A program made the translations under genes and the position numbers. Of a DNA stretch of 27,930 nt, positions 11,526 through 27,450 are shown in pieces. The DNA is taken from the IMG/VR virus record IMGVR_UViG_3300027712_000017. One strand, given 5' to 3'. Below the pieces are notes generated by a model. That model worked only from the letters and a program-made list of their open reading frames with translations. It was not told the DNA's origin and searched no databases. The stretch's first letter is position 1. Each line of letters begins with the position of its first letter. This stretch comes from a virus (taxonomy: Duplodnaviria; Heunggongvirae; Uroviricota; Caudoviricetes).

Positions 11526-11696
11526 ATGGAATACGGAATCAAAGTCAATGGATCATGGATGCATTTTCTGAGTGAATATAATAACAATAGAAAAACTATG
11601 ACATTCAAAACTAAAGAAGAAGCAGAAATGTATGCTGAAAGTGTTGAATTGTCTACTTATTCAGTTGAGGAATATAATGCTTCTACACCCCGTTGA
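11526..11696 (+). CDS. Small hypothetical protein
   Basis: AGGAG RBS; 56 codons; F.TKEEA motif common in phage small proteins. Confidence 0.6.
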   Translation: MEYGIKVNGSWMHFLSEYNNNRKTMTFKTKEEAEMYAESVELSTYSVEEYNASTPR

Positions 11697-12156
11697 TAGA
11701 AATAATCCTATCTTAAAACAAAAAGCAAATCCTTTTATATTCGGATCTTCAATTGATCCTGTTGAACTTGCTAAAAGTTTGACTGAACTAGCAATTACAG
11801 CAGATTCAATTTCATTATCTGCACCACAATGTGGAATTGATGCTAGGGTCTTTGTGATCCTAGCAGATCCTGTACTCGCTTGTTTTAACCCAAAAATTGT
11901 TGACAGAAGTGAAGAAGAACTTTATCTCGAAGAAAAGTGCTTGACATTTCCCAATGTTGTGTTAAAAGTAAAGAGACCAAAGAAAATTCGCGTTCGCTTT
12001 ACTATGCCTAACGGCATGACTGAAACAAGAGTTTTCGATGGTTTGACTGCTCGTCATTTTCAGCAACAAGTAGATCACCTTGATGGTGTGCTATTTACGC
12101 AACGGGCAACATTATTTCATCGTGAACAAGCATTTAAAAGAGCAAAACTAGCGTAA
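11677..12156 (+). CDS. def: Peptide deformylase homologue with degenerate active site
   Basis: PDF layout (LSAPQ.G, FNPKI, CLTFP, V.RP..I.V, DHLDG), but HExxH is replaced by QQVDH. Confidence 0.8.
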   Translation: MLLHPVDRNNPILKQKANPFIFGSSIDPVELAKSLTELAITADSISLSAPQCGIDARVFVILADPVLACFNPKIVDRSEEELYLEEKCLTFPNVVLKVKRPKKIRVRFTMPNGMTETRVFDGLTARHFQQQVDHLDGVLFTQRATLFHREQAFKRAKLA

Positions 12157-14185: not shown

Positions 14186-15530
14186 GAAAAGTTTAGATTA
14201 TGTGATCTCAGCGTGTGGTATGATGGGTGTGTTATCACCTGACCATGAAGCACCTTGGTTCCCAGTATACAAGGAGGCGACCCAATCTCTGATGGGGTCG
14301 CTTAAATCAAGAATAGCGGAGACATGTCATAATACACGACCGCTAGTTTCAACTTTGTATAACGCATATACTGAAAAGAATCATGTCCATGACTTTGAAC
14401 GACTAGATAATCTGGGTTCGGATGCTGTGTATGCAGACTCTGGCGGATTGCAAATTGTTACGGCGGGTAAAACAATCACAGAAGAAATGAAGCAACAAAT
14501 CTACAAGACACAAACTTATGCAGATTATGCGATGTGTTTTGACGTTATTCCGCTGTCATCTGTGTCATTGACTAGAACTCGTAATGAACGTTCTAACGTA
14601 GGCAATAAAGTTTTTCATTATGGAAGATTGCAAGAGTCTGCACACGCTACAGGTGATAACGTAAAGTCCCAGACAACTTATTTCAGAACACATAATGCCA
14701 AGACAAAAGCAATTATTATTGTGCAAGGTAATTCAGCAGATGACATGGTTGAATTTTTCAAAGGTGTTATATCTCGTTTGTCATCTGAGGACTATGATAA
14801 CATCGGCGGTATGGCAGTTGCAGATACTTGCATCGGCAATGGTGAACTAGAATCAATCGAGATGCTTAGAGCAGCAAAACGAATTTCAGAATTCTGTCAT
14901 CCTAACATTCGTCGGCATCTTCACGTTCTCGGTGTAGGTTCCATCAGTCGTATGCGACCTATTCTTTATCTATTGAAATCAGGTTATCTCGACAAGTTTG
15001 AGCGCGTATCTTATGACTCAAGTTCCCACACCTCGACATTCCAATATGGTTTGTTGAAGTTGAATGGGACTTGCAAATCCATAGGCTCTTACAAAACACC
15101 AGCGGTTGACAAACAGTTCAGAAGCGTGTATAATATGTTTAATGATACATTTTCTTCTTTAAATGTATCAGAAGATAATTGGATGCAGTTGTTATTTGGT
15201 GATGGCACAGGTGATTGGAAATACTCGACAATCAAACATAGAATGATGTTGCTTTCAACCGCAAATGAAATTTCAGCAGGTCTATTATGCAATGCTGCAT
15301 ATACTTACTTTCAAATTCACAATTTCGTGACCAACCTAGATAAGGTCATGGGTCATGAACTAAATAAAGTAAGATCAAATGATTTGCGTGAAATCGGTAT
15401 GAATAAACTGCTAGGTGTCACAACAGAAGATCAGATGGATGCTTGGTTGTATAACAATAGAACATTTATCAAATCTAAACGCATTAACAGAGATGAAAAC
15501 ATGATTAGTATTGAGGACTTTTTTGCATGA
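14175..15530 (+). CDS. TGT/DpdA-family 7-deazaguanine transglycosylase, probably acting on DNA
   Basis: DSGGLQ, FDVIP, IVQG, HLHVLG, YDSSS TIM-barrel motifs; no CxCxxC zinc motif of bacterial tRNA TGT; embedded in the preQ0 pathway. Confidence 0.75.
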   Translation: MVDKKSLDYVISACGMMGVLSPDHEAPWFPVYKEATQSLMGSLKSRIAETCHNTRPLVSTLYNAYTEKNHVHDFERLDNLGSDAVYADSGGLQIVTAGKTITEEMKQQIYKTQTYADYAMCFDVIPLSSVSLTRTRNERSNVGNKVFHYGRLQESAHATGDNVKSQTTYFRTHNAKTKAIIIVQGNSADDMVEFFKGVISRLSSEDYDNIGGMAVADTCIGNGELESIEMLRAAKRISEFCHPNIRRHLHVLGVGSISRMRPILYLLKSGYLDKFERVSYDSSSHTSTFQYGLLKLNGTCKSIGSYKTPAVDKQFRSVYNMFNDTFSSLNVSEDNWMQLLFGDGTGDWKYSTIKHRMMLLSTANEISAGLLCNAAYTYFQIHNFVTNLDKVMGHELNKVRSNDLREIGMNKLLGVTTEDQMDAWLYNNRTFIKSKRINRDENMISIEDFFA

Positions 15531-16468
15531 ACAAAATTGAAGAAATCGCTTTAATCGCTTCCGTTCATTTGGGTAAAGCAGGTGACGGTAGCGTAGTTAA
15601 ACCATATATTACACCGGATCAAGTTGATCCTACTTTACTTGTTGCAATTCCACGACAGTTAAATCGTGATCATTACAATATCAATCAAGATACTTTAATG
15701 GTAGGTTATGATACATGGAATGCATATGAAGTATCATTCTTGCTTGATAACGGTTATCCGATCAACGTTGTTGCAAAAATAACATATTCATCAGAATCAT
15801 ATGCTATTGTTGAATCTAAATCATTGAAGTTGTATTTAAACTCATTCAATATGCAGAAGTTTGGTAAAACACTTCATGAGGCAGCAGATGCAGCAGCAGC
15901 AAAAATCCATATTGATTTAGGTAATTTGCTTGCAACTGATGTTTGTATTGACATATTCACAGATAGTTACTTCAACGAAATTGCAGGTGAACATGCATTC
16001 AGAGGAACCTTTCCTTCTCTAGAAGAAATTACAGATGTTGAAAACATGGATTTTCCTTTTTATAATGAGAATCCTGAAATTCTTAAAATCGACCATGAAA
16101 CTGATCACAATTTGTTTACTGCAAAATCAAATGCGTTGCGGTCGAACTGTCGTGTAACTAATCAACCTGATTGGGGTGATGTCTATATTGTATTAGAAGG
16201 AGAATCAATTCCAACTTATGAATCTGTTCTTCAATACATCGTTTCAATGCGTAAAGAAAATCACTTTCATGAAGAAATTTGTGAATGTATCTACAAGCGT
16301 CTACTCGACAAGTTCAATCCAGAACACTTGATTGTTGGTTGTCTATATACTCGTCGTGGCGGTATTGACATCAATCCAGTTCGTGCAACAAGCATGGAAA
16401 TGCTACTTCGTTACTCTAAAGCCCTGATGACTCCAGGTATCCTCGTCAACAAAACAATGAGACAATAA
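15527..16468 (+). CDS. queF: Bimodular (YqcD-type) NADPH-dependent preQ0 reductase
   Basis: QueF motif VESKSLKLYLNS, catalytic RSNC..TNQPDWG, FHEEICE, YTRRGGIDINP. Confidence 0.93.
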   Translation: MNKIEEIALIASVHLGKAGDGSVVKPYITPDQVDPTLLVAIPRQLNRDHYNINQDTLMVGYDTWNAYEVSFLLDNGYPINVVAKITYSSESYAIVESKSLKLYLNSFNMQKFGKTLHEAADAAAAKIHIDLGNLLATDVCIDIFTDSYFNEIAGEHAFRGTFPSLEEITDVENMDFPFYNENPEILKIDHETDHNLFTAKSNALRSNCRVTNQPDWGDVYIVLEGESIPTYESVLQYIVSMRKENHFHEEICECIYKRLLDKFNPEHLIVGCLYTRRGGIDINPVRATSMEMLLRYSKALMTPGILVNKTMRQ

Positions 16469-16469
16469 T

Positions 16470-17213
16470 ATGAATCTTAATGATGCACTAAACGCACTTC
16501 CTACAACTAATAAAAAAGTCCTTGCCGTTCTTTCGGGCGGTTTGGATTCTTCAGTGATGACTATGATGCTAGTTCAAAAGTATGGCGCAAGCAATGTCGT
16601 TGCATTGTCATACAATTACGGACAGAAGCAGAAACTTGAATTGACGAAGGCAGCAGAGTTAACAGCAAAACTAGGTGTAGCACATAAGGTCATTGATCTA
16701 GGTATTCTAGGTGAGATCGCTAAACCTATCTCTGCAAATATCAGCGGAACAGATGTTGCGATGCCAACAATCAAGGATGTGCTAGGTGATCCTCAACCTA
16801 AGACATATGTTCCATTCCGAAATCTTATTCTGTTGTCACTAACTATGGCACAGGCGGAAGCATCTGATGCATCTCATGTGTTCACAGGACTGCAGGTGCA
16901 TGACGAGTATGGGTACTGGGATACCTCGCAGCGGTTCGTTGACTCGCTGAACGCAGTTGCAGCACAGAACAGAACTCACAAGGTCGAAATCCTTGCGCCA
17001 TTCTCGTTGCTGTCGAAGCACGAAGAAATCGAAATTTGTCGTGAAATGGGCAAACTTTCGCTTTTAGAAAACACCTTAACGTGTTATAATCCTAATGAGG
17101 TGGGTGAGTCATGCGGCAAATGCCCTTCATGCGCTGAACGTATTCAAAACTTCATGAAGTCGAAGTTGGTCGATCCCATCCCGTATCAGATTAATATTCC
17201 TTGGAAGGTATAA
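16470..17213 (+). CDS. queC: 7-cyano-7-deazaguanine synthase
   Basis: LSGGLDS, YGQ, TYVPFRN, TCY...CGKCPSC. Confidence 0.95.
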   Translation: MNLNDALNALPTTNKKVLAVLSGGLDSSVMTMMLVQKYGASNVVALSYNYGQKQKLELTKAAELTAKLGVAHKVIDLGILGEIAKPISANISGTDVAMPTIKDVLGDPQPKTYVPFRNLILLSLTMAQAEASDASHVFTGLQVHDEYGYWDTSQRFVDSLNAVAAQNRTHKVEILAPFSLLSKHEEIEICREMGKLSLLENTLTCYNPNEVGESCGKCPSCAERIQNFMKSKLVDPIPYQINIPWKV

Positions 17214-21232: not shown

Positions 21233-21632
21233 AGAAGCTCCGGTTGAAAAGAAGTTCGATGTGTTTACATTCGTAGGTGATATTTCAAAAGGTAAGAAGT
21301 ATCTTTTCTCGGAAGAAACTGCTGATAAGTATGATGCATATATCGTAAACAAAGCATTTTCATTGACTGCTGATACGATTCTATATGCTAATGATATGAA
21401 TCTTCATTACAATCTACCCAAACTTCTACAACATGATTATTTAATAAATAGTATTAGACCTAGAAGTCGATATGAGAAGTGGCCCAAAGCAGAGAAAAGC
21501 TCTGACATAGATGCAATCAAGGAATACTATAAGTATAGTGATGCAAAAGCACGGTCCGCTCTTTCAATATTAAGCAAAGGTCAACTTGCTATTATTAAAG
21601 AAAAATTAGAAAAGGGTGGAATAACTAAATGA
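21183..21632 (+). CDS. gp62: Clamp loader small subunit (T4 gp62)
   Basis: Y..YIVNKAFS, DTILYANDMN, KW.K, IKEYYKYS..KA; GGAG RBS. Confidence 0.9.
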   Translation: MVKNTTKQKTSPQPKTEEAPVEKKFDVFTFVGDISKGKKYLFSEETADKYDAYIVNKAFSLTADTILYANDMNLHYNLPKLLQHDYLINSIRPRSRYEKWPKAEKSSDIDAIKEYYKYSDAKARSALSILSKGQLAIIKEKLEKGGITK

Positions 21633-22027
21633 ACTTAATTGAAACACTTGTGGAGGTGAGAATCGGCGAGGAACAAGACTTCCTCAAGATCAAAGAAACA
21701 TTGACTCGTATCGGCGTAGCTTCTAGAAAAGACAACAAACTATATCAATCATGCCACATCCTGCACAAGCAGGGCAAGTACTATATCGTTCACTTCAAGG
21801 AACTATTTGCACTTGATGGCAAGCCTACTGACTTCTCTGACGAAGATAAAGGTAGACGCAACACTATCATCAACCTACTACAAGACTGGGATCTAGTCAA
21901 GGTTGTTGATGTAAGACAAATTGAAGACCCAAGAGCTGCTATGAGTCAGGTCAAGATCCTACCTCATAAGGACAAGGCTCAGTGGGAACTCGTAGCGAAA
22001 TACAACATCGGTCGCAAGAAGGTGTGA
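21629..22027 (+). CDS. regA: Translational repressor RegA
   Basis: DFLKIKETLTRIG, LYQSCHILHKQG.YYIVHFKELF.LDG. Confidence 0.96.
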   Translation: MNLIETLVEVRIGEEQDFLKIKETLTRIGVASRKDNKLYQSCHILHKQGKYYIVHFKELFALDGKPTDFSDEDKGRRNTIINLLQDWDLVKVVDVRQIEDPRAAMSQVKILPHKDKAQWELVAKYNIGRKKV

Positions 22028-22094
22028 TTTCCCGGTTGACATCTTTTCTCGAATATTCGATAAACAATGTAACGAAACAAAAGGGAACCACACA

Positions 22095-22304
22095 TTGAAA
22101 CAGAAGATCAAGATCGACACTCAGAAACTCCACAAGGTTGCATTCGGTATGGCAGAGATGGCGAAAGACTATCCTAACGACATGATTGCAAACAACTTAG
22201 CACGAGTGAGCGAAAAGGTAGCCGCATATGGTGCTGCGTGGAGTGAAAAACTTGACGAACTTGATATGAAAATTATTCGATTTTATTTGCAAAAAAGTGC
22301 TTGA
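22095..22304 (+). CDS. Hypothetical protein
   Basis: 69-codon ORF, TTG start with AAGGGA RBS, own promoter-like motif at 22036. Confidence 0.6.
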   Translation: MKQKIKIDTQKLHKVAFGMAEMAKDYPNDMIANNLARVSEKVAAYGAAWSEKLDELDMKIIRFYLQKSA

Positions 22305-22329
22305 CAATCGAAAAGAAATCATATATACA
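22301..22329 (+). promoter_or_regulatory. Sigma70-like promoter of the leader and tRNA array
   Basis: TTGACA-N17-TATACA. Confidence 0.65.
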
Positions 22330-22365
22330 TTAAGAACAACGAAACAAACAAAGGTTTTTGAAACA

Positions 22366-22443
22366 ATGCCGTCTTATCTTAACCAGATTGATAATATGAA
22401 AGAGGTCCGCTTTGGCGGCTTCGTTGGGGTTCTTTGTATGTGA
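22366..22443 (+). CDS. Putative attenuator leader peptide MPSYLNQIDNMKEVRFGGFVGVLCM
   Basis: 25-codon ORF between promoter and terminator; its 3' end forms the antiterminator arm. Confidence 0.6.
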   Translation: MPSYLNQIDNMKEVRFGGFVGVLCM

Positions 22444-22471
22444 CAGCACTTTGCTCACATGATCTAAGAAG

Positions 22472-22504
22472 AACCCCGGTATCCAGAAGGTCCCGGGGTT
22501 TTTT
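22472..22504 (+). terminator. Conditional Rho-independent terminator (attenuator)
   Basis: AACCCCGG ... CCGGGGTT plus TTTT; the 5' arm can alternatively pair with GGGGTTCTT at 22426-22434. Confidence 0.8.
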
Positions 22505-22592
22505 GTTGCGTTGACGAAAAAAGTGGTTGACATTATTTACCAAATAAACGATGTTGACAATGTAGGAACGAAGCGATGGCATCAATCTTCCT

Positions 22593-22605
22593 TGCTCTTT
22601 CAAAA
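22593..22605 (+). promoter_or_regulatory. rrn-type boxA antitermination element
   Basis: TGCTCTTTCAAAA versus E. coli rrn boxA TGCTCTTTAACA; just upstream of the tRNA array. Confidence 0.65.
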
Positions 22606-22652
22606 TTTAGAAACTTGTTCCTAGCGTAAGCGATGACGGAACTGGAAACAGT

Positions 22653-22748
22653 AACTCTGTTTTCACATGCATCCCGCAAATGAGGGTAGGCCTACCAACA
22701 CTTTGCTGAGATTAGTCCACTAGATGGGGTGCGTGTGTAAACAGAGTT
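22653..22748 (+). ncRNA. Unknown structured RNA closed by a ~22-bp stem
   Basis: AACTCTGTTT-T-CACATGCATCCC pairs with GGGGTGCGTGTG-T-AAACAGAGTT; internal GCAAA/TTTGC and GGTAG/CTACC stems. Confidence 0.65.
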
Positions 22749-22749
22749 T

Positions 22750-22824
22750 TGGGGAGTGGCCAAGTGGTAAGGCATCGCACTTTGAATGCGTGTACCGTAG
22801 GTTCGAATCCTACCTCCCCATCCA
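22750..22824 (+). tRNA. tRNA-Gln(TTG)
   Basis: Cloverleaf, loop CTTTGAA, GTTCGAATC, encoded CCA. Confidence 0.92.
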
Positions 22825-22828
22825 ATAT

Positions 22829-22936
22829 AACGACTAACATGTTGCAACGTGGTCAGAAATACATCAACAACTAAGATGGTTCGATTCCCAAGCTCTGGTG
22901 AGGCTCAGTTGAAGATATGATCTGTTTATAGTCGTT
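22829..22936 (+). ncRNA. Unknown T-loop-containing structured RNA
   Basis: AACGACTA/TAGTCGTT closing stem, TCAAC/GTTGA, internal GGTTCGATTCC. Confidence 0.5.
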
Positions 22937-22945
22937 CCCAATCAT

Positions 22946-23017
22946 GGCGTCTCTAAGCGGTTTAGACGGATCTCTCATAAGGATCTAGGGTGAGTTCAAC
23001 TCTCACAGACGCTACCA
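22946..23017 (+). tRNA. tRNA(CAT), Met or Ile2, with atypical shortened D-arm
   Basis: GGCGTCT/AGACGCT acceptor, loop CTCATAA, T-arm GTGAG/CTCAC, CCA. Confidence 0.75.
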
Positions 23018-23081
23018 AAAGAACGCTTGACATTATTTCGATAATATACGATAACGATTACATGATGAAAAGGAAGACGAC

Positions 23082-23240
23082 ATGATCCACACTGGAAACA
23101 TCAGCTACCTAAACAGCGTGCATCGTAAGTATGGTGTTTGGAAATACTATATGCACACACTGAAACAATGGTCGGACGGCAAATACACTGTCGAATTTAG
23201 GGAAAAAGAAGATGAAACGAAAACAGAAAGAACTTCCTAA
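23082..23240 (+). CDS. Small hypothetical protein (52 aa)
   Basis: AGGA RBS; MIHTGNISYL...ERTS; promoter-like motif at 23027. Confidence 0.5.
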   Translation: MIHTGNISYLNSVHRKYGVWKYYMHTLKQWSDGKYTVEFREKEDETKTERTS

Positions 23241-23376
23241 ACAACGCAATCCTTTCGTGGAGCATATGCGCTTCAAGGTTTGCGGTGCTCATGGGAAAAG
23301 CAAGAAGGTTCAACGCCGTGACGATAAGATGGCGCTGAAGCAAAATCACGAACCGGAGGCTACTGTTGGTTGGTAG
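23212..23376 (+). CDS. Small basic protein (54 aa, RNPF...GAHGKSKK) overlapping tRNA-Lys(TTT)
   Basis: MKRKQKELPKQRNPFVEHMRFKVCGAHGKSKKVQRRDDKMALKQNHEPEATVGW; stop codon lies inside the tRNA D-arm. Confidence 0.55.
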   Translation: MKRKQKELPKQRNPFVEHMRFKVCGAHGKSKKVQRRDDKMALKQNHEPEATVGW

Positions 23377-23438
23377 TGCCAGTCTTTTAAACTGATCCCG
23401 AAAGGGCATCGCGGGTTCAATTCCCGCCCGGTTCTCCA
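23350..23438 (+). tRNA. tRNA-Lys(TTT) with abnormal long variable arm
   Basis: GAACCGG/CCGGTTC acceptor, loop CTTTTAA, variable hairpin CCC-GAAA-GGG, T-arm GCGGG/CCCGC, T-CCA. Confidence 0.75.
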
Positions 23439-23540
23439 TTACTTTGATGATACACTGTCCGCAACAGGTCTTGATGGGGCAGCTTACGAGCAAGCCAAAG
23501 TGTAGGTGAAAGTCCTACCGCAGTGTATCTTCTAAGTAAT
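23438..23540 (+). ncRNA. Stem-enclosed RNA cassette, copy 1
   Basis: ATTACTTTGATGATACACT ... AGTGTATCTTCTAAGTAAT terminal stem; internal GTAGG-TGAAAGT-CCTAC hairpin. Confidence 0.65.
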
Positions 23541-23659
23541 AGAATTGACTGAGTTCAGTGGTTCTCGAGATAAACTGTTCCAGTTATTCGTCCGCCTGCT
23601 GTTCCCACCGTGGTAGGTCTAAAGTGACGTTAAGCATCTACAAGTTAACGGCGGGCCGT

Positions 23660-23750
23660 ATTACTTTGATGATACACTACAAGTGAGGCACATCCTTTAA
23701 ACCAAGCGGGTTTGAGTCCCGAGGCTAAAGTAGTGTATCTTCTAAGTAAT
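23660..23750 (+). ncRNA. Stem-enclosed RNA cassette, copy 2
   Basis: Same two 19-nt terminal arms as copy 1, different interior with CGGG-TTTGAGT-CCCG T-arm-like hairpin. Confidence 0.65.
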
Positions 23751-23825
23751 GCACCGGTAGTTCAGTGGTAGAACAGCGGACTCTTAATCCGCGTGTCGAG
23801 GGTTCAATCCCCTCCCGGTACACCA
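23751..23825 (+). tRNA. tRNA-Lys(CTT)
   Basis: Cloverleaf, GCGGA-CTCTTAA-TCCGC, CCA. Confidence 0.92.
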
Positions 23826-23953
23826 AAACGCGCCCTTTGACGTTGAAACAGACTAGGGTGATGGCGAATGATTCTCTCCAGTCCGGCCGGATAAACGGGA
23901 GACGTCTAAATAACCATCCGCTGCCGAACTGCGATAGTGTTCGGTGCAATTAT

Positions 23954-24028
23954 GTCTTGGTAGCTCAATGGTAGAGCGCCTGCCTGAAGAGCAGGGCGTA
24001 GGGAGTTCGATTCTCCCCCTCGACACCA
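23954..24028 (+). tRNA. tRNA-Phe(GAA)
   Basis: CCTGC-CTGAAGA-GCAGG, CCA; two acceptor mismatches. Confidence 0.88.
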
Positions 24029-24030
24029 GA

Positions 24031-24149
24031 ATTGGGTCTAGCATGGTGCTGCTGAAGAGAGTCATGACTCCGAGGCGAATGGAAAAAATATAGATTGCTG
24101 CTCATGACGCAGAATACAGTCTATAGGTTCGAAACCCCGCCCGATACCA
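24031..24149 (+). ncRNA. tRNA-like RNA (119 nt) with acceptor stem, T-loop and CCA but expanded interior
   Basis: ATTGGGT/GCCCGAT-A-CCA, GGTTCGAAACC, TAGATTG/CAGTCTA stem topped by CTGC-TCATGAC-GCAG. Confidence 0.5.
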
Positions 24150-24236
24150 ACTGTGTCAGATCCAGCTGCACATTAAAAGAATTTCTGGCTGAAATTTTCT
24201 CTTAACGCCTCTCGTAGAAGCGCAACAATAGAGTTT

Positions 24237-24311
24237 AGTCCTATAGCTCAGTGGTAGAGCAAAGAGCTGATAACTCTTAGGTCAGGTGTTCAATTCACCT
24301 TAGGACTACCA
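24237..24311 (+). tRNA. tRNA-Ile(GAT)
   Basis: AAGAG-CTGATAA-CTCTT, CCA. Confidence 0.92.
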
Positions 24312-24316
24312 AGTTT

Positions 24317-24407
24317 GGGGAGTGCAATAAGGCTAGGTGGTCCTAGCGGCAGGCTGTAACCCTGTCCCGGAAACGGCAAGAGGTTCGAATCCGTCCATTC
24401 CCCACCA
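24317..24407 (+). tRNA. tRNA-Tyr(GTA), atypical (8-bp acceptor, 6-bp D-stem with 4-nt loop)
   Basis: GGGGAGTG/CATTCCCC, GCTAGG-TGGT-CCTAGC, GCAGG-CTGTAAC-CCTGT, variable CCG-GAAA-CGG, CCA. Confidence 0.75.
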
Positions 24408-24413
24408 TAATAT

Positions 24414-24488
24414 GCGCCCATCGTCTATCGGCTAGGATAACAAACTTTCAATTTGTAGAGACGGGTTCAACTCCCGTTGGGTGTACCA
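24414..24488 (+). tRNA. tRNA-Glu(TTC)
   Basis: ACAAA-CTTTCAA-TTTGT, CCA. Confidence 0.9.
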
Positions 24489-24494
24489 ATTCAT

Positions 24495-24568
24495 ATTCTT
24501 GTCGTCTAATGTGAGGATACTATCTCGACACGATAGGGGCAATGGTTAGATTCCATTCAAGGATACCA
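24495..24568 (+). tRNA. tRNA-Val(GAC), atypical (C33, T-loop TTAGATT)
   Basis: ATTCTTG/CAAGGAT, CTATC-TCGACAC-GATAG, CCA. Confidence 0.65.
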
Positions 24569-24573
24569 ATAAT

Positions 24574-24646
24574 GCTTTCGCCGGCGGATCCGGTGGCGGG
24601 TCTACGAAGCCTGCTTACGAATGTTCGACTCATTCCGGGAGCGCCA
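24574..24646 (+). tRNA. tRNA-Arg(ACG) with shortened D-arm
   Basis: GCTTTCG/CGGGAGC, GCGGGT-CTACGAA-GCCTGC, CCA. Confidence 0.78.
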
Positions 24647-24652
24647 TAATAT

Positions 24653-24729
24653 GTTCCTTGTAGGCCAATCGGTAGAGCCTCGTGACGCGCGCCACGAAGA
24701 TGGAGGTTCGAATCCTCCCAGGGACACCA
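24653..24729 (+). tRNA. tRNA of undetermined identity (8-nt loop ACGCGCGC, no U33)
   Basis: Canonical D-loop GGTA, T-arm GGAGG-TTCGAAT-CCTCC and CCA; TCGTG/CACGA stem. Confidence 0.6.
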
Positions 24730-24734
24730 ATAAT

Positions 24735-24805
24735 GCTTCTACCGCTGGGACGGGTTAGGTCTTCTAAGCCGAAAACGGAAGGTTCGATTCCTTCTAGGAG
24801 CTCCA
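24735..24805 (+). tRNA. tRNA-Arg(TCT) with shortened D-arm
   Basis: GCTTCTA/TAGGAGC, loop CTTCTAA, GAAGG-TTCGATT-CCTTC, CCA. Confidence 0.75.
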
Positions 24806-24812
24806 ATACAAT

Positions 24813-24887
24813 GCTGGATAAGGTGTAATGGTTGCATCCCTCACTGTGACTGAGGTGGACGTGGTTCGATCCCACTATCCAGTACCA
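24813..24887 (+). tRNA. tRNA-His(GTG), A73, no encoded G-1
   Basis: CCTCA-CTGTGAC-TGAGG; GCTGGAT/ATCCAGT-A-CCA. Confidence 0.88.
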
Positions 24888-24888
24888 A

Positions 24889-25125
24889 TCAAGCTGCTAC
24901 AGATACGTCTGCGCTCTTAACAATATTTCTTACTACACCCGGTGAAATGATACGATGTCTAGGAACAGCGATGTTAGTTTTAGATTCTGGATGGTTCCAA
25001 ATATCGTGACCGCCGTGTGTTCGTTCCAGTGACCATCCACGAGTTTTCAAGTGTCTCGTTATATCTTTTTGTTTTAAATTAACATTTATTTCACGTTCGG
25101 TGATAAATTCTAAAAAGGTTAACAC
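24889..25125 (-). CDS. hicA: HicA-family RNase with T4 capsid-targeting-like N-terminus
   Basis: L..RGW...R.HGGH.IW.HP....IAVPRH..I.PG..RNI HicA pattern; GTG start with GGAG RBS; N-terminus MLTFLEFITE. Confidence 0.82.
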   Translation of the reverse strand: MLTFLEFITEREINVNLKQKDITRHLKTRGWSLERTHGGHDIWNHPESKTNIAVPRHRIISPGVVRNIVKSADVSVAA

Positions 25126-25150
25126 TTGCTTACTCCCGTTGATGTTATGT

Positions 25151-25158
25151 TATTTATA
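25151..25158 (-). promoter_or_regulatory. T4-type late promoter for hicA
   Basis: TATTTATA on + equals TATAAATA on -, 25 nt upstream of the start codon. Confidence 0.8.
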
Positions 25159-25218
25159 AATTTCAGGTGTAAGACTTATGCGCGACTTTTCGCGCACCGG
25201 AAATAAAAAATTCTTCGG

Positions 25219-25247
25219 TTGACATAAATACTAATACACTGTAATGT
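25219..25247 (+). promoter_or_regulatory. Sigma70-like promoter upstream of tRNA-Cys
   Basis: TTGACA-N17-TAATGT. Confidence 0.6.
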
Positions 25248-25254
25248 GTGTTAT

Positions 25255-25332
25255 GGTGTGGTGCTCGAGTGGCCCAAGGGAATGGATTGCAAATCCATAA
25301 AGTCGTGAGTTCGAATCTCACCCACACCTCCA
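25255..25332 (+). tRNA. tRNA-Cys(GCA)
   Basis: ATGGA-TTGCAAA-TCCAT, U73, CCA. Confidence 0.9.
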
Positions 25333-25338
25333 AACAAT

Positions 25339-25413
25339 GCTTCTATAGCTCAACGGAAGAGCGGCGGTCTTCGAAACCGTATGTTGTGGGTTCGAGTCCT
25401 GCTAGGAGCACCA
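25339..25413 (+). tRNA. tRNA-Arg(TCG)
   Basis: GCGGT-CTTCGAA-ACCGT, CCA. Confidence 0.9.
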
Positions 25414-25436
25414 AGAAACTAAAAGAAAGGCAACTC

Positions 25437-25808
25437 ATGAGAATGATCGCGGCAGCATTGCTTGCAGCGTCTTTGATGAGTTCTCCCACGACTGTGAAAG
25501 ATGCAACTTTCCATCCATCCTGCTACGCTGAAAGCGGTCGTGTAGTAACTGCGTCATGGTATAAACATGGCAAAGTGACTGCGAATGGAGAACACTTTAA
25601 CCCTGACGGGTTAACAGCAGCACATAAAAAATTACCCTTCGGTACACTTTTGTTGTTGACATATGAAGATAAATCTGTTATTGTGAGAATCAATGATAGA
25701 GGACCATTCATCAAAGGCAGAGAAATCGACCTATCAAAAGGCGCTGCTAAAGCGCTAGGTTGTATCGAAAAGGGAGTTTGCGATGTGCAGATGACCATTC
25801 TATTTTAA
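25437..25808 (+). CDS. RlpA-family (double-psi beta-barrel) lytic transglycosylase with signal peptide
   Basis: [40 protein letters not shown]; likely start at MRMIAAALL. Confidence 0.9.
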
Positions 25809-25811
25809 ATT

Positions 25812-25885
25812 GGCTCTATCGTATATAGGTATTACCTTCGGCTGTCCACCGAACGAAGGGGGTTCGAGTCCCCCTAGAGTCGCCA
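25812..25885 (+). tRNA. tRNA-Asp(GTC)
   Basis: TTCGG-CTGTCCA-CCGAA, G73, CCA. Confidence 0.9.
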
Positions 25886-25891
25886 AAATTA

Positions 25892-25956
25892 GGGATGAGT
25901 TCAGCAAAATTTTTAAGCAACAAACTTGTAATTTGTAAACGCTAAAAAATCATCCC
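25892..25956 (+). ncRNA. GTTCAGCAA hairpin element, copy 1, carrying a Thr(TGT)-like anticodon stem-loop
   Basis: GGGATGA/TCATCCC closing stem; ACAAA-CTTGTAA-TTTGT. Confidence 0.55.
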
Positions 25957-25973
25957 GTTGAACAAAAAATGTC

Positions 25974-26002
25974 TTGACATTAATAACAAAATGTCGTATA
26001 TA
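25974..26002 (+). promoter_or_regulatory. Sigma70-like promoter upstream of the initiator-like tRNA-Met
   Basis: TTGACA-N17-TATATA (TATAAT 4 nt further). Confidence 0.7.
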
Positions 26003-26026
26003 TAATACAACGATGAAAAGAATCAT

Positions 26027-26102
26027 TGCGGGGTAGAGAAGAGGCATCTCGACTGGCTCATACCCAGTAAATCGGAGGTTCGAGTCCTCCCCACCGCAAC
26101 CA
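26027..26102 (+). tRNA. tRNA-Met(CAT), initiator-like
   Basis: TGCGGGG...CCGCAACCA resembles tRNA-fMet; ACTGG-CTCATAC-CCAGT; bulged A in acceptor. Confidence 0.82.
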
Positions 26103-26111
26103 AAACAATGT

Positions 26112-26187
26112 TTCCAGTTAGCTCAGTTGGTAGAGCATCTGACTGTTAATCAGAGTGTCGCAGGTTCGAGCCCTGCACTGGGAGCCA
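26112..26187 (+). tRNA. tRNA-Asn(GTT)
   Basis: TCTGA-CTGTTAA-TCAGA, G73, CCA. Confidence 0.93.
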
Positions 26188-26204
26188 AATATCAAAGGTG
26201 CTGA

Positions 26205-26486
26205 ATGGGTAAATATTTCTCAAGAGTGTTTATCGCATTCAGTATCCTTATGAACGCTCTTGTCGGCGGTAAGAACAATCAAACTCTTAGCGCAGGACAA
26301 TGGCAGCGTAAACGAAAGAAGAAATGGAACTTTGTCAAAATGATTGACGCATTTTTCTGGTGGGAAAAAGATCACTGTGAAGATGCGTGGATCAAATGGC
26401 AAATCATTAACTATGCTATCAATCAATATGATGGTATTGCTGAACACTATTACAGCGGTATCAAGAAGAAGAAAAAGAAGAAATAA
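26205..26486 (+). CDS. Hypothetical protein (N..GG..NQTLSA, ID..F....HC) with poly-Lys tail
   Basis: 93-codon ORF with AAGGT RBS between tRNAs. Confidence 0.7.
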   Translation: MGKYFSRVFIAFSILMNALVGGKNNQTLSAGQWQRKRKKKWNFVKMIDAFFWWEKDHCEDAWIKWQIINYAINQYDGIAEHYYSGIKKKKKKK

Positions 26487-26487
26487 T

Positions 26488-26562
26488 CAGGGTGTAGCTC
26501 AGTGGTAGAGTGCTTCACTTGGAATGAAGAAGCCGCAAGTTCAATCCTTGTCACCCTGACCA
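26488..26562 (+). tRNA. tRNA-Pro(TGG)
   Basis: CAGGGTG/CACCCTG, CTTCA-CTTGGAA-TGAAG, CCA. Confidence 0.92.
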
Positions 26563-26568
26563 AAATTT

Positions 26569-26630
26569 AGGATCGGTTCAGCAAACAAAAACGCTAAATC
26601 AATGGATGTCTTAGCGGACAAAACGATCCT
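26569..26630 (+). ncRNA. GTTCAGCAA hairpin element, copy 2
   Basis: AGGATCG/CGATCCT closing stem, GTTCAGCAAA, inner CGCTAA/TTAGCG stem. Confidence 0.55.
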
Positions 26631-26632
26631 GT

Positions 26633-26640
26633 TATAAATA
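26633..26640 (+). promoter_or_regulatory. T4-type late promoter (tRNA-Ala, tRNA-Ser, PAAR)
   Basis: Exact TATAAATA. Confidence 0.75.
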
Positions 26641-26649
26641 AAAGACAAT

Positions 26650-26725
26650 GGGGAATTAGCTCATCTGGGAGAGCGATTGCTTTGCAAGCAATAGGTGATC
26701 GGTTCGAGGCCGATATTCTCCACCA
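26650..26725 (+). tRNA. tRNA-Ala(TGC)
   Basis: G3:U70, ATTGC-TTTGCAA-GCAAT, CCA. Confidence 0.93.
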
Positions 26726-26731
26726 AAATAC

Positions 26732-26819
26732 GGAGGGCTGGGCGAGTGGTTTATGCCTGCAGTCTTGAAAACTGCCGGACCGCAAGGTCCCGTGAGTTCG
26801 AATCTCACGCCCTCCGCCA
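26732..26819 (+). tRNA. tRNA-Ser(TGA)
   Basis: GCAGT-CTTGAAA-ACTGC, long variable arm, G73, CCA. Confidence 0.93.
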
Positions 26820-26834
26820 TATAAGGAATAAGAA

Positions 26835-27134
26835 ATGCCAGTGGTAGCGGTTGAAGGATCAGGTGTTGCAACAGGCCATCCATGTGATGGCGCAACGACA
26901 CTTGACACCCCATCACAAAGCAAAGTATTTGCAGGCGGCAAATTAGTCGCTTGTTTAGGCGATCCGACAGTTGTTCATCAGATTCTTGTTGGTATTCCTT
27001 GTGTTCCACATACTGCTTCAATAGGTGGTAGTTCATCTACGGTATTCATTGGCGGCATAGGTGTCGCAAGAGTATCAGATGCGTGTGACGCAGGTAGTAT
27101 CACATCAGGTGAGTCAACTGTTACAGTAGGTTAA
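26835..27134 (+). CDS. PAAR-domain tail spike tip protein (T4 gp5.4-like)
   Basis: GH.C, VF.GG..VA..GD...H, H...I..SSSTVFIGG..VARV.D..D.G.I..GE..V..G. Confidence 0.88.
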   Translation: MPVVAVEGSGVATGHPCDGATTLDTPSQSKVFAGGKLVACLGDPTVVHQILVGIPCVPHTASIGGSSSTVFIGGIGVARVSDACDAGSITSGESTVTVG

Positions 27135-27136
27135 AT

Positions 27137-27211
27137 GCGGATGTAGCTCAGAGGTAGAGCTTCTCGTTGCCAACGAGACGGTCACGGGTTCGAACCCCGT
27201 TATCCGCTCCA
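27137..27211 (+). tRNA. tRNA-Gly(GCC)
   Basis: TCTCG-TTGCCAA-CGAGA, U73, CCA. Confidence 0.92.
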
Positions 27212-27213
27212 AT

Positions 27214-27287
27214 GTCGGTGAAGTGTTATGGTAGCACGGCGGTCTCCAAAACCGCAAGCCAGAGTTCGACTCTCTGCACCCTCGCCA
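27214..27287 (+). tRNA. tRNA-Trp(CCA)
   Basis: GCGGT-CTCCAAA-ACCGC, G73, CCA; two acceptor mismatches. Confidence 0.88.
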
Positions 27288-27293
27288 AATTAT

Positions 27294-27368
27294 GGTCCGT
27301 TAGCGCAGCGGTAGCGCACCTCCTTTACATGGAGTAGGTCATCTGTTCGATCCAGATACGGACTACCA
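27294..27368 (+). tRNA. tRNA-Val(TAC)
   Basis: CTCC-TTTACAT-GGAG, CCA. Confidence 0.9.
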
Positions 27369-27374
27369 GATAAT

Positions 27375-27450
27375 GCCTTGGTGGTGAAATGGTAAACACA
27401 CCGGTCTTAGAAGCCGTAAGCTGAGAGTTCGAGTCTCTCCCGGGGCACCA
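27375..27450 (+). tRNA. tRNA-Leu(TAG) with short variable region
   Basis: GCCTTGG/CCGGGGC, loop CTTAGAA, 5-nt variable loop, CCA. Confidence 0.85.

Follow-up and report, generated by a model that had tools for sequence, protein, structure and literature searches.

Why phages carry arrays of tRNA genes has been an open question for decades. It is raised again by a tRNA array lying behind a short leader ORF and a terminator in the window, the 27,930-nt stretch of DNA analyzed here, which comes from a T4-like freshwater phage that has not been cultured. A sequence-only reading of this locus had proposed a leader-peptide attenuator that would switch on the array when any tRNA runs short. The anatomy, conservation, composition bias and folding switch of the element were established by computation. 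The main reading is that of a ribosome-coupled attenuator which senses the capacity for decoding and, when translation falters, directs additional transcription into the phage tRNA array. It is given a probability of about 0.7.

The window encodes gp45, gp44, gp62 and regA. The closest gp45 of a cultured phage was approximately 42% identical, and the RegA matches among MAGs were scattered and at most 74% identical. No match to the element was found in cultured phages by BLASTn. The order along the plus strand is regA, a 69-codon ORF, the attenuator element and the tRNA array. The regA gene (21629-22027; PHROG 242, E = 5e-58) encodes a T4-like translational repressor and served as the upstream landmark. 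The 69-codon ORF (22095-22304) had no match in PHROG; it has 30 homologues and, with its orthologous loci, served as the synteny anchor. In L250-L255 and L258-L260 this 69-codon gene sits inside the tRNA array, and a tRNA call with a CUA (amber) anticodon is present. A peptide deformylase is encoded at 11632-12156 of the window. Homologues of QueF, QueC and Vut_1 are annotated in relatives at the position syntenic to 15527-17213, pointing to 7-deazaguanine chemistry. Promoters without a -7 T give a weak hint of Alphaproteobacteria as the host. A single contig of metatranscriptome X2 spans 21600-22726; it is no evidence of read-through, as assembled contigs show neither ends nor strand and may include DNA.

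The element begins with P1 (22301-22329), a putative sigma70-type promoter with TTGACA at 22301-22306, a 17-nt spacer and TATACA at 22324-22329. Its -35 box overlaps the stop codon of the 69-codon ORF. P1 was missed by a consensus promoter scanner because the -7 T is absent. The -10 region matches the T4 late box at six of eight positions and a perfect TATAAATA occurs in eight other family loci. Late boxes in leader promoters raise the possibility that the attenuator provides late transcription on a conditional basis. A weak Shine-Dalgarno sequence, AAGG (22351-22354), precedes the ATG by 11 nt and lies within an A-rich 5' leader. The leader ORF (22366-22443) has 25 codons, contains 16 amino acids and ends GVLCM-stop. 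An extension of the leader to 48 codons from a GTG at 22297 was rejected, as it was not conserved, being lost in L245 and frame-broken in L267.

A pause-type hairpin (22402-22422) of -9.2 kcal/mol was predicted within the ORF, with a candidate pause site at 22435/22436 (G-10, Y-1, G+1) where polymerase may pause. An exact-sequence search for this hairpin found no match. The antiterminator 5' arm (22426-22434), formed by codons 21-23, pairs with 22469-22477. Nested within the antiterminator is an inner stem holding the stop codon (22437-22461; -6.7 kcal/mol). The two together have a predicted energy of -22.3 kcal/mol. The antiterminator 3' arm (22469-22477) is also the 5' arm of an intrinsic terminator (22472-22504; -15.2 kcal/mol) with a U6 tract, and the two structures are mutually exclusive. 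Folding of the region as a whole was modest (z = -1.75). The promoter, ORF, hairpin, antiterminator and terminator were all found where the sequence-only reading had placed them, as was the weak ribosome binding site that it had flagged.

Orthologues were searched for using RegA, the upstream ORF and short patterns. This gave 13 further distinct syntenic copies, or 14 with the window. All 14 have the TTGACA promoter 60-66 nt upstream of the start codon and an A-rich leader, with AAGG or AAGGA in 13. All 14 keep an open frame ending GV(L/W)CM-TGA, the stop-codon stem, in which the arms are conserved and the loop is variable, and a terminator 5' arm identical to the antiterminator 3' arm. The spacers flanking the leader ORF differ by single bases between copies, and in most cases stops interrupt the other two frames. 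A hairpin of -8 to -15 kcal/mol is present at the pause position in 14/14 copies with differing sequences, and G-10, Y-1 and G+1 are invariant. The antiterminator core is completely paired in every copy, and its seven core pairs were 100% paired in 12 aligned sequences. For the terminator 94% of cells were paired. Compensatory changes were found in the antiterminator, terminator and pause hairpin, including two adjacent U-A to G-C double changes in the antiterminator of sister clade A and one G-C to A-U double change in the terminator, each a single event on the tree. Double changes were taken from an anchored comparison because the MAFFT alignment misplaces a gap; zero double changes were counted in that alignment and its inner-stem counts are unreliable. 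The short, diverse ORF, its stop position and the covarying stems that the first reading had proposed to look for in relatives are conserved.

The composition of the leader was then compared with that of proteins. Codons 1-17 of the window's copy hold 15 amino acids, as first reported. Equal diversity was found in 31 of 6,697 windows (0.5%) of the phage's own proteins, and p was 0.007 against random codons. The sensing zone, codons 2-17 (22369-22416), was defined by ribosome-mask folding and holds the same 15 amino acids, including an internal Met (diversity p = 0.005-0.007). The full 25 codons with 16 amino acids are unremarkable alone (8.9% of protein windows, p = 0.13). The leader contains no Ala, His, Thr or Trp and so cannot sense them, and its Cys falls beyond the sensing zone, within the masked tail. 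It samples 16 codons, with one or two per amino acid. The description "pan-codon", or a sensor of any tRNA, was therefore overstated, and "near-complete amino-acid sampler" fits better. No excess match was found between leader codons and array anticodons (14/16 against 13.8 expected). A partition model, in which the amino acids absent from the leader are served by a second leader or by blocks with promoters of their own, was not supported: His is in the first block, several sensed amino acids belong to later blocks, and the window yielded no second leader-terminator. As the window's copy alone is statistically modest, the case beyond chance rests on conservation in relatives and on a control set.

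Three orthologue groups were defined by leader sequence. The window's group (five members) has 16-17 amino acids in 25 codons. Clade A (L248, L265, L266, L269 and L270) has 19-20 amino acids in 26 codons, and in four of the five members the first 18 codons hold 17 amino acids. Clade B (L001, L087, L121 and L263) has 18-20 amino acids in 26-27 codons in a different order. The leader sequences of the sister clades are largely unrelated. Twenty amino acids in 26 codons occurred in 0/6,454 protein windows (p about 2e-5); such p-values overstate certainty because the loci are phylogenetically non-independent. Residues also relocate: Cys and Tyr are exchanged between L001 and L087, and Tyr and Asp have moved in L272 relative to the window. 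Some of these relocations also serve RNA helices. In the window's clade non-synonymous changes are approximately twice the synonymous ones, indicating only mild constraint at the protein level. These comparisons suggest that family-wide selection keeps a near-complete amino-acid set and not a peptide sequence. The window's leader is a reduced version of the family type with 15 sensed amino acids. The RegA tree was weakly supported and too weak to prove the 20/20 leader ancestral.

The switch was modeled by folding nascent RNA with the ribosome footprint masked. With the ribosomal A site at or before codon 17, or with the ribosome absent, the nascent RNA formed the antiterminator (P = 0.98-1.0; 0.98 without a ribosome). 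From codon 19 onward the terminator formed (P = 0.99). Masked and unmasked folding thus gave the read-through fold for early or absent ribosomes and the terminator beyond; for ribosomes that stall early or reach the stop this is what the sequence-only reading had expected. The predicted switch point lies between codons 16 and 19, moving with the assumed footprint, and the end of the diverse zone coincides with it. At full-length equilibrium the two folds differ little (antiterminator 0.5-0.97 for early stalls), which makes the switch dependent on the order of folding. When refolding behind the ribosome was freely allowed, approximately 45% pairing of the terminator 5' arm persisted after codon 19. 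The only Trp and Cys codons of clade A are in the masked tail, where the simple model has no means of sensing them.

A control scan of all loci collected isolated ORFs of 20-50 codons ending 35-80 nt before a terminator U tract, with those within 700 nt of a tRNA classed as tRNA-adjacent. At least 19 amino acids were present in 15 of 23 tRNA-adjacent ORFs and in 2 of 82 elsewhere. Both exceptions were orthologues cut off at a contig end, leaving true controls at 0/80. The median diversity z was +2.5 for tRNA-adjacent ORFs and -0.9 elsewhere. The terminator 5' arm was sequestered by upstream RNA (P > 0.8) in 22/23 tRNA-adjacent cases and 68/418 others. Eight of the 23 had been found via motifs that imply the helix and one was the window; in the remaining 14, which were independent of the antiterminator motif, sequestration was 0.79-1.00.

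More distant members were also found. In nine, with little sequence likeness, 19-20 amino acids precede the predicted switch point. Partial amino-acid sets are present in relatives L249 and L257. A terminator-only pattern matched 119 loci, in only two of which the terminator heads an array; the leaders of these two hold 19 amino acids in 30 codons and 20 in 41. Pattern matches in metagenomes were mostly chance. The cultured Xanthomonas phage BUDD (ON758385) has a similar 39-codon leader (L279:7810-7929) with 18 amino acids and the same predicted switch, 321 nt upstream of 35 tRNA calls. No such leader was found in the regions fetched from DLP_6, RcXuper, Phosso, Aeromonas 65 and VPT02. In seven further loci (L021:3887-3985, L024:5024-5118, L026:4721-4815, L030:5048-5142, L032:5023-5116, L039:4444-4538 and L042:5191-5285) the last codons of a conserved protein gene, which ends GLV-stop or similar, pair with the 5' arm of a terminator located 11-450 nt upstream of tRNA arrays. 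These are possibly attenuators with an ordinary gene as leader.

[quoted passage not shown] RNA polymerase would start at P1 and probably pause near 22435 behind the hairpin until a ribosome translating the leader arrives. During normal decoding the ribosome would pass approximately codon 18 and cover the antiterminator 5' arm, the terminator would fold and a transcript of approximately 170 nt would be released. A stall at any of codons 2-17 for want of a usable tRNA, or a failure of ribosome loading, would let the antiterminator form before the terminator 3' arm is synthesized, and polymerase would read through to boxA and the tRNA genes. Negative feedback would follow, with decoding recovering through the newly made tRNA and the switch closing again. 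The copy in the window would work alongside a downstream promoter. The ribosome-coupled attenuator first proposed thus gains support from the conserved frame, stop, helices, hairpin and switch point, while the signal sensed is a matter of inference; host tRNA loss through defense nucleases or host RNA decay is the most likely candidate.

The part of the original proposal that made the attenuator the switch of the array fared less well. Read-through is predicted, but a second promoter-like sequence, P2 (22527-22555; A-tract, TTGACA-17-GATGTT), starts 22 nt past the U tract. It is conserved in the window's clade and clade A with a constant 17-nt spacer, and the -10 boxes are better in L266 and L270. 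With this putative promoter downstream, the attenuator in the window is probably a booster rather than the sole gate. Further promoter-like sites occur inside the array at 23027, 25219 and 25974, with a late box at 26633; the first reading had already cautioned that such internal motifs exist. The switch could then be real but marginal in this phage, with most tRNA made from P2 and the internal promoters and the leader a decaying remnant of a 20-amino-acid ancestor, as the mere 16-17 amino acids in 5/5 members of the window's clade would also suggest. This is possible but doubtful. It overlaps with the main reading and concerns how much the switch matters in the window's phage. Clade A keeps its 19-20 amino acids despite P2, and all five members of the window's clade still have 15-16 different amino acids in 17 codons, despite substitutions, and retain all helices. 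P2 is absent from clade B and from L011, L031, L156, L213 and L256, and in these, lacking such a promoter upstream of the first tRNA, the array appears dependent on read-through.

The array itself (22750-27450) comprises 20 ARAGORN calls and about four further cmscan hits. In a near relative it continues past the window end with two Thr and one Gly tRNA. An rrn-type boxA motif lies at 22593-22605, and a boxA-like motif follows the terminator in every orthologue long enough to show one. A second boxA motif is located within the array at about 24911-24924. Their positions at the head of the array and inside it suggest Nus-dependent antitermination. Structured or tRNA-like cores closed by stems of at least 20 pairs were found at 22653-22748, 23435-23543 and 23660-23750. 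The latter two have near-identical arms and each contains a T-arm-like hairpin. In L001 and L248, too, tRNA-like sequence lies within stems of this kind. The stem-closed cores could be processing stems, Y-RNA-like molecules or decoys. The variable arm of a tRNA-Lys(UUU) call at 23350-23438 is long, which is unusual for a lysine tRNA; anticodon nucleases commonly target tRNA-Lys. Atypical tRNA-like genes missed or unassigned by ARAGORN, with extended or 8-nt anticodon loops and weak D arms, lie at 24034-24146, 24495-24565, 24575-24645 and 24654-24729. Two stem-closed copies of an element with conserved GTTCAGCAA (25892-25958 and 26569-26626) each directly follow a tRNA; the element also occurs in L259/L260 and had no Rfam match. 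Embedded in the array are a HicA-like ORF in antisense (24889-25125, minus strand; Pfam PF07927, E = 2e-11), also present in L267/L268, a DPBB_1 (lytic transglycosylase-like) ORF at 25437-25808 and a PAAR ORF at 26835-27134.

Two of the remaining alternatives concern what is sensed. Any failure of translation would open the switch, since ribosome-free nascent RNA forms the antiterminator (P = 0.98). The element could on that account sense overall translation or leader initiation, as altered by ribosome damage, host shut-off or RegA repression acting as a timer, and not individual tRNAs. The regA gene is adjacent, and the A-rich unstructured 5' leader resembles RegA targets. This is unlikely, as it leaves selection for near-complete amino-acid sets before the switch point unexplained. 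Amino-acid starvation, sensed through uncharged tRNA and not through tRNA destruction, has the precedent of whiB7, and completeness at the amino-acid rather than the codon level agrees with it, as does the lack of excess codon-anticodon match. The proposed mechanism would respond to both. Starvation as the signal that matters is nevertheless improbable, as making tRNA would not relieve an amino-acid shortage, whereas phage tRNAs have been shown to rescue phages from tRNA-cutting defenses (PMC11555353, PMC10264068). An ordinary terminator of the regA region after a small protein or RNA, or a ribosome-independent switch (T-box, riboswitch or protein-bound antiterminator), is very improbable: terminators are common after gene blocks, the strongly conserved stop-codon stem could bind protein and the window's copy is modest on its own, but composition is conserved where peptide order is not, the antiterminator is specific to tRNA-adjacent terminators, and neither an Rfam family at threshold nor a T-box bulge was found.

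Returning to the attenuator reading, the phage probably makes extra tRNA when ribosomes stall. We lean, somewhat less firmly, toward the wider view that many unrelated large phages evolved near-complete amino-acid leaders as feedback sensors of the tRNA pool, the window member being reduced to 15, and that phage tRNA output rises when tRNA-destroying immunity or RNA decay stalls ribosomes. If this is true, a regulator that opens only on decoding failure would make the arrays an on-demand backup against tRNA loss, not a constant codon compensation. Such an inducible counter-defense would respond to what a tRNA-targeting system does, whichever system it is, without recognizing it. The amino acids in a leader predict the kinds of tRNA loss that its phage can detect, a prediction open to direct test, also in a cultured phage. 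As a reporter for tRNA-targeting immunity the 200-nt element would be ready-made.

Leader-peptide attenuators of amino-acid and synthetase operons include trpL, hisL, thrL, ilvL and pheM-pheST. The phage element resembles these in its promoter, short leader, pause hairpin and exclusive 2:3 and 3:4 helices, and in a stop codon approximately 55 nt upstream of the U tract. Unlike the trp/his/thr class it has no tandem regulatory codons, as had been noted from the sequence, with 15 amino acids in 17 codons and up to 20 in 26 in orthologues. The window copy also has no 1:2 helix making termination the untranslated default; clade B has a possible 1:2-type helix at equilibrium. Downstream is a tRNA array and not a biosynthesis or synthetase operon. 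In an Rfam search of the element no family reached threshold, the best match being Thr_leader (21.2 bits against a gathering threshold of 55, E = 1.5). There was no Rfam hit to the T-box riboswitch, and the predicted antiterminator has no T-box bulge (UGGN).

In agreement with the first reading, a literature search, weak on subscription journals, found no attenuator described for phage tRNA genes. In T5/SP15 and T6 phage tRNA supply offsets tRNA-cutting immunity in a dose-dependent manner (PMC11555353, PMC13096335); there the dose is raised via a strong promoter or gene amplification and not by a feedback sensor. The Anabaena trn L-array is a long bacterial tRNA array that is induced by translational stress (PMC8421152, PMC10272220), as is proposed for the phage array. 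Its control, however, is exerted by the repressor TrcR, which binds DNA at the promoter; attenuation or a leader is not mentioned in the text of PMC8421152. The closest likeness in mechanism is with mycobacterial whiB7, where a uORF is coupled to a terminator and antiterminator: efficient translation terminates, and stalling or loss of the start codon causes read-through, as folding predicts for the phage element. The whiB7 uORF of M. smegmatis holds 19 amino acids, is Ala-enriched and controls a transcription factor; a single Trp codon is enough for sensing (PMC10274678). Amino-acid content sets the signals sensed by whiB7, and the broad content of the phage leaders may do the same. Unlike whiB7, the phage leader packs a near-complete set of amino acids into few codons, repeats little and stands ahead of tRNA genes. 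By analogy, the element would function as whiB7 and trp-type attenuators do, yet it falls outside the trp class because it has neither codon runs nor default termination and its target is tRNA.
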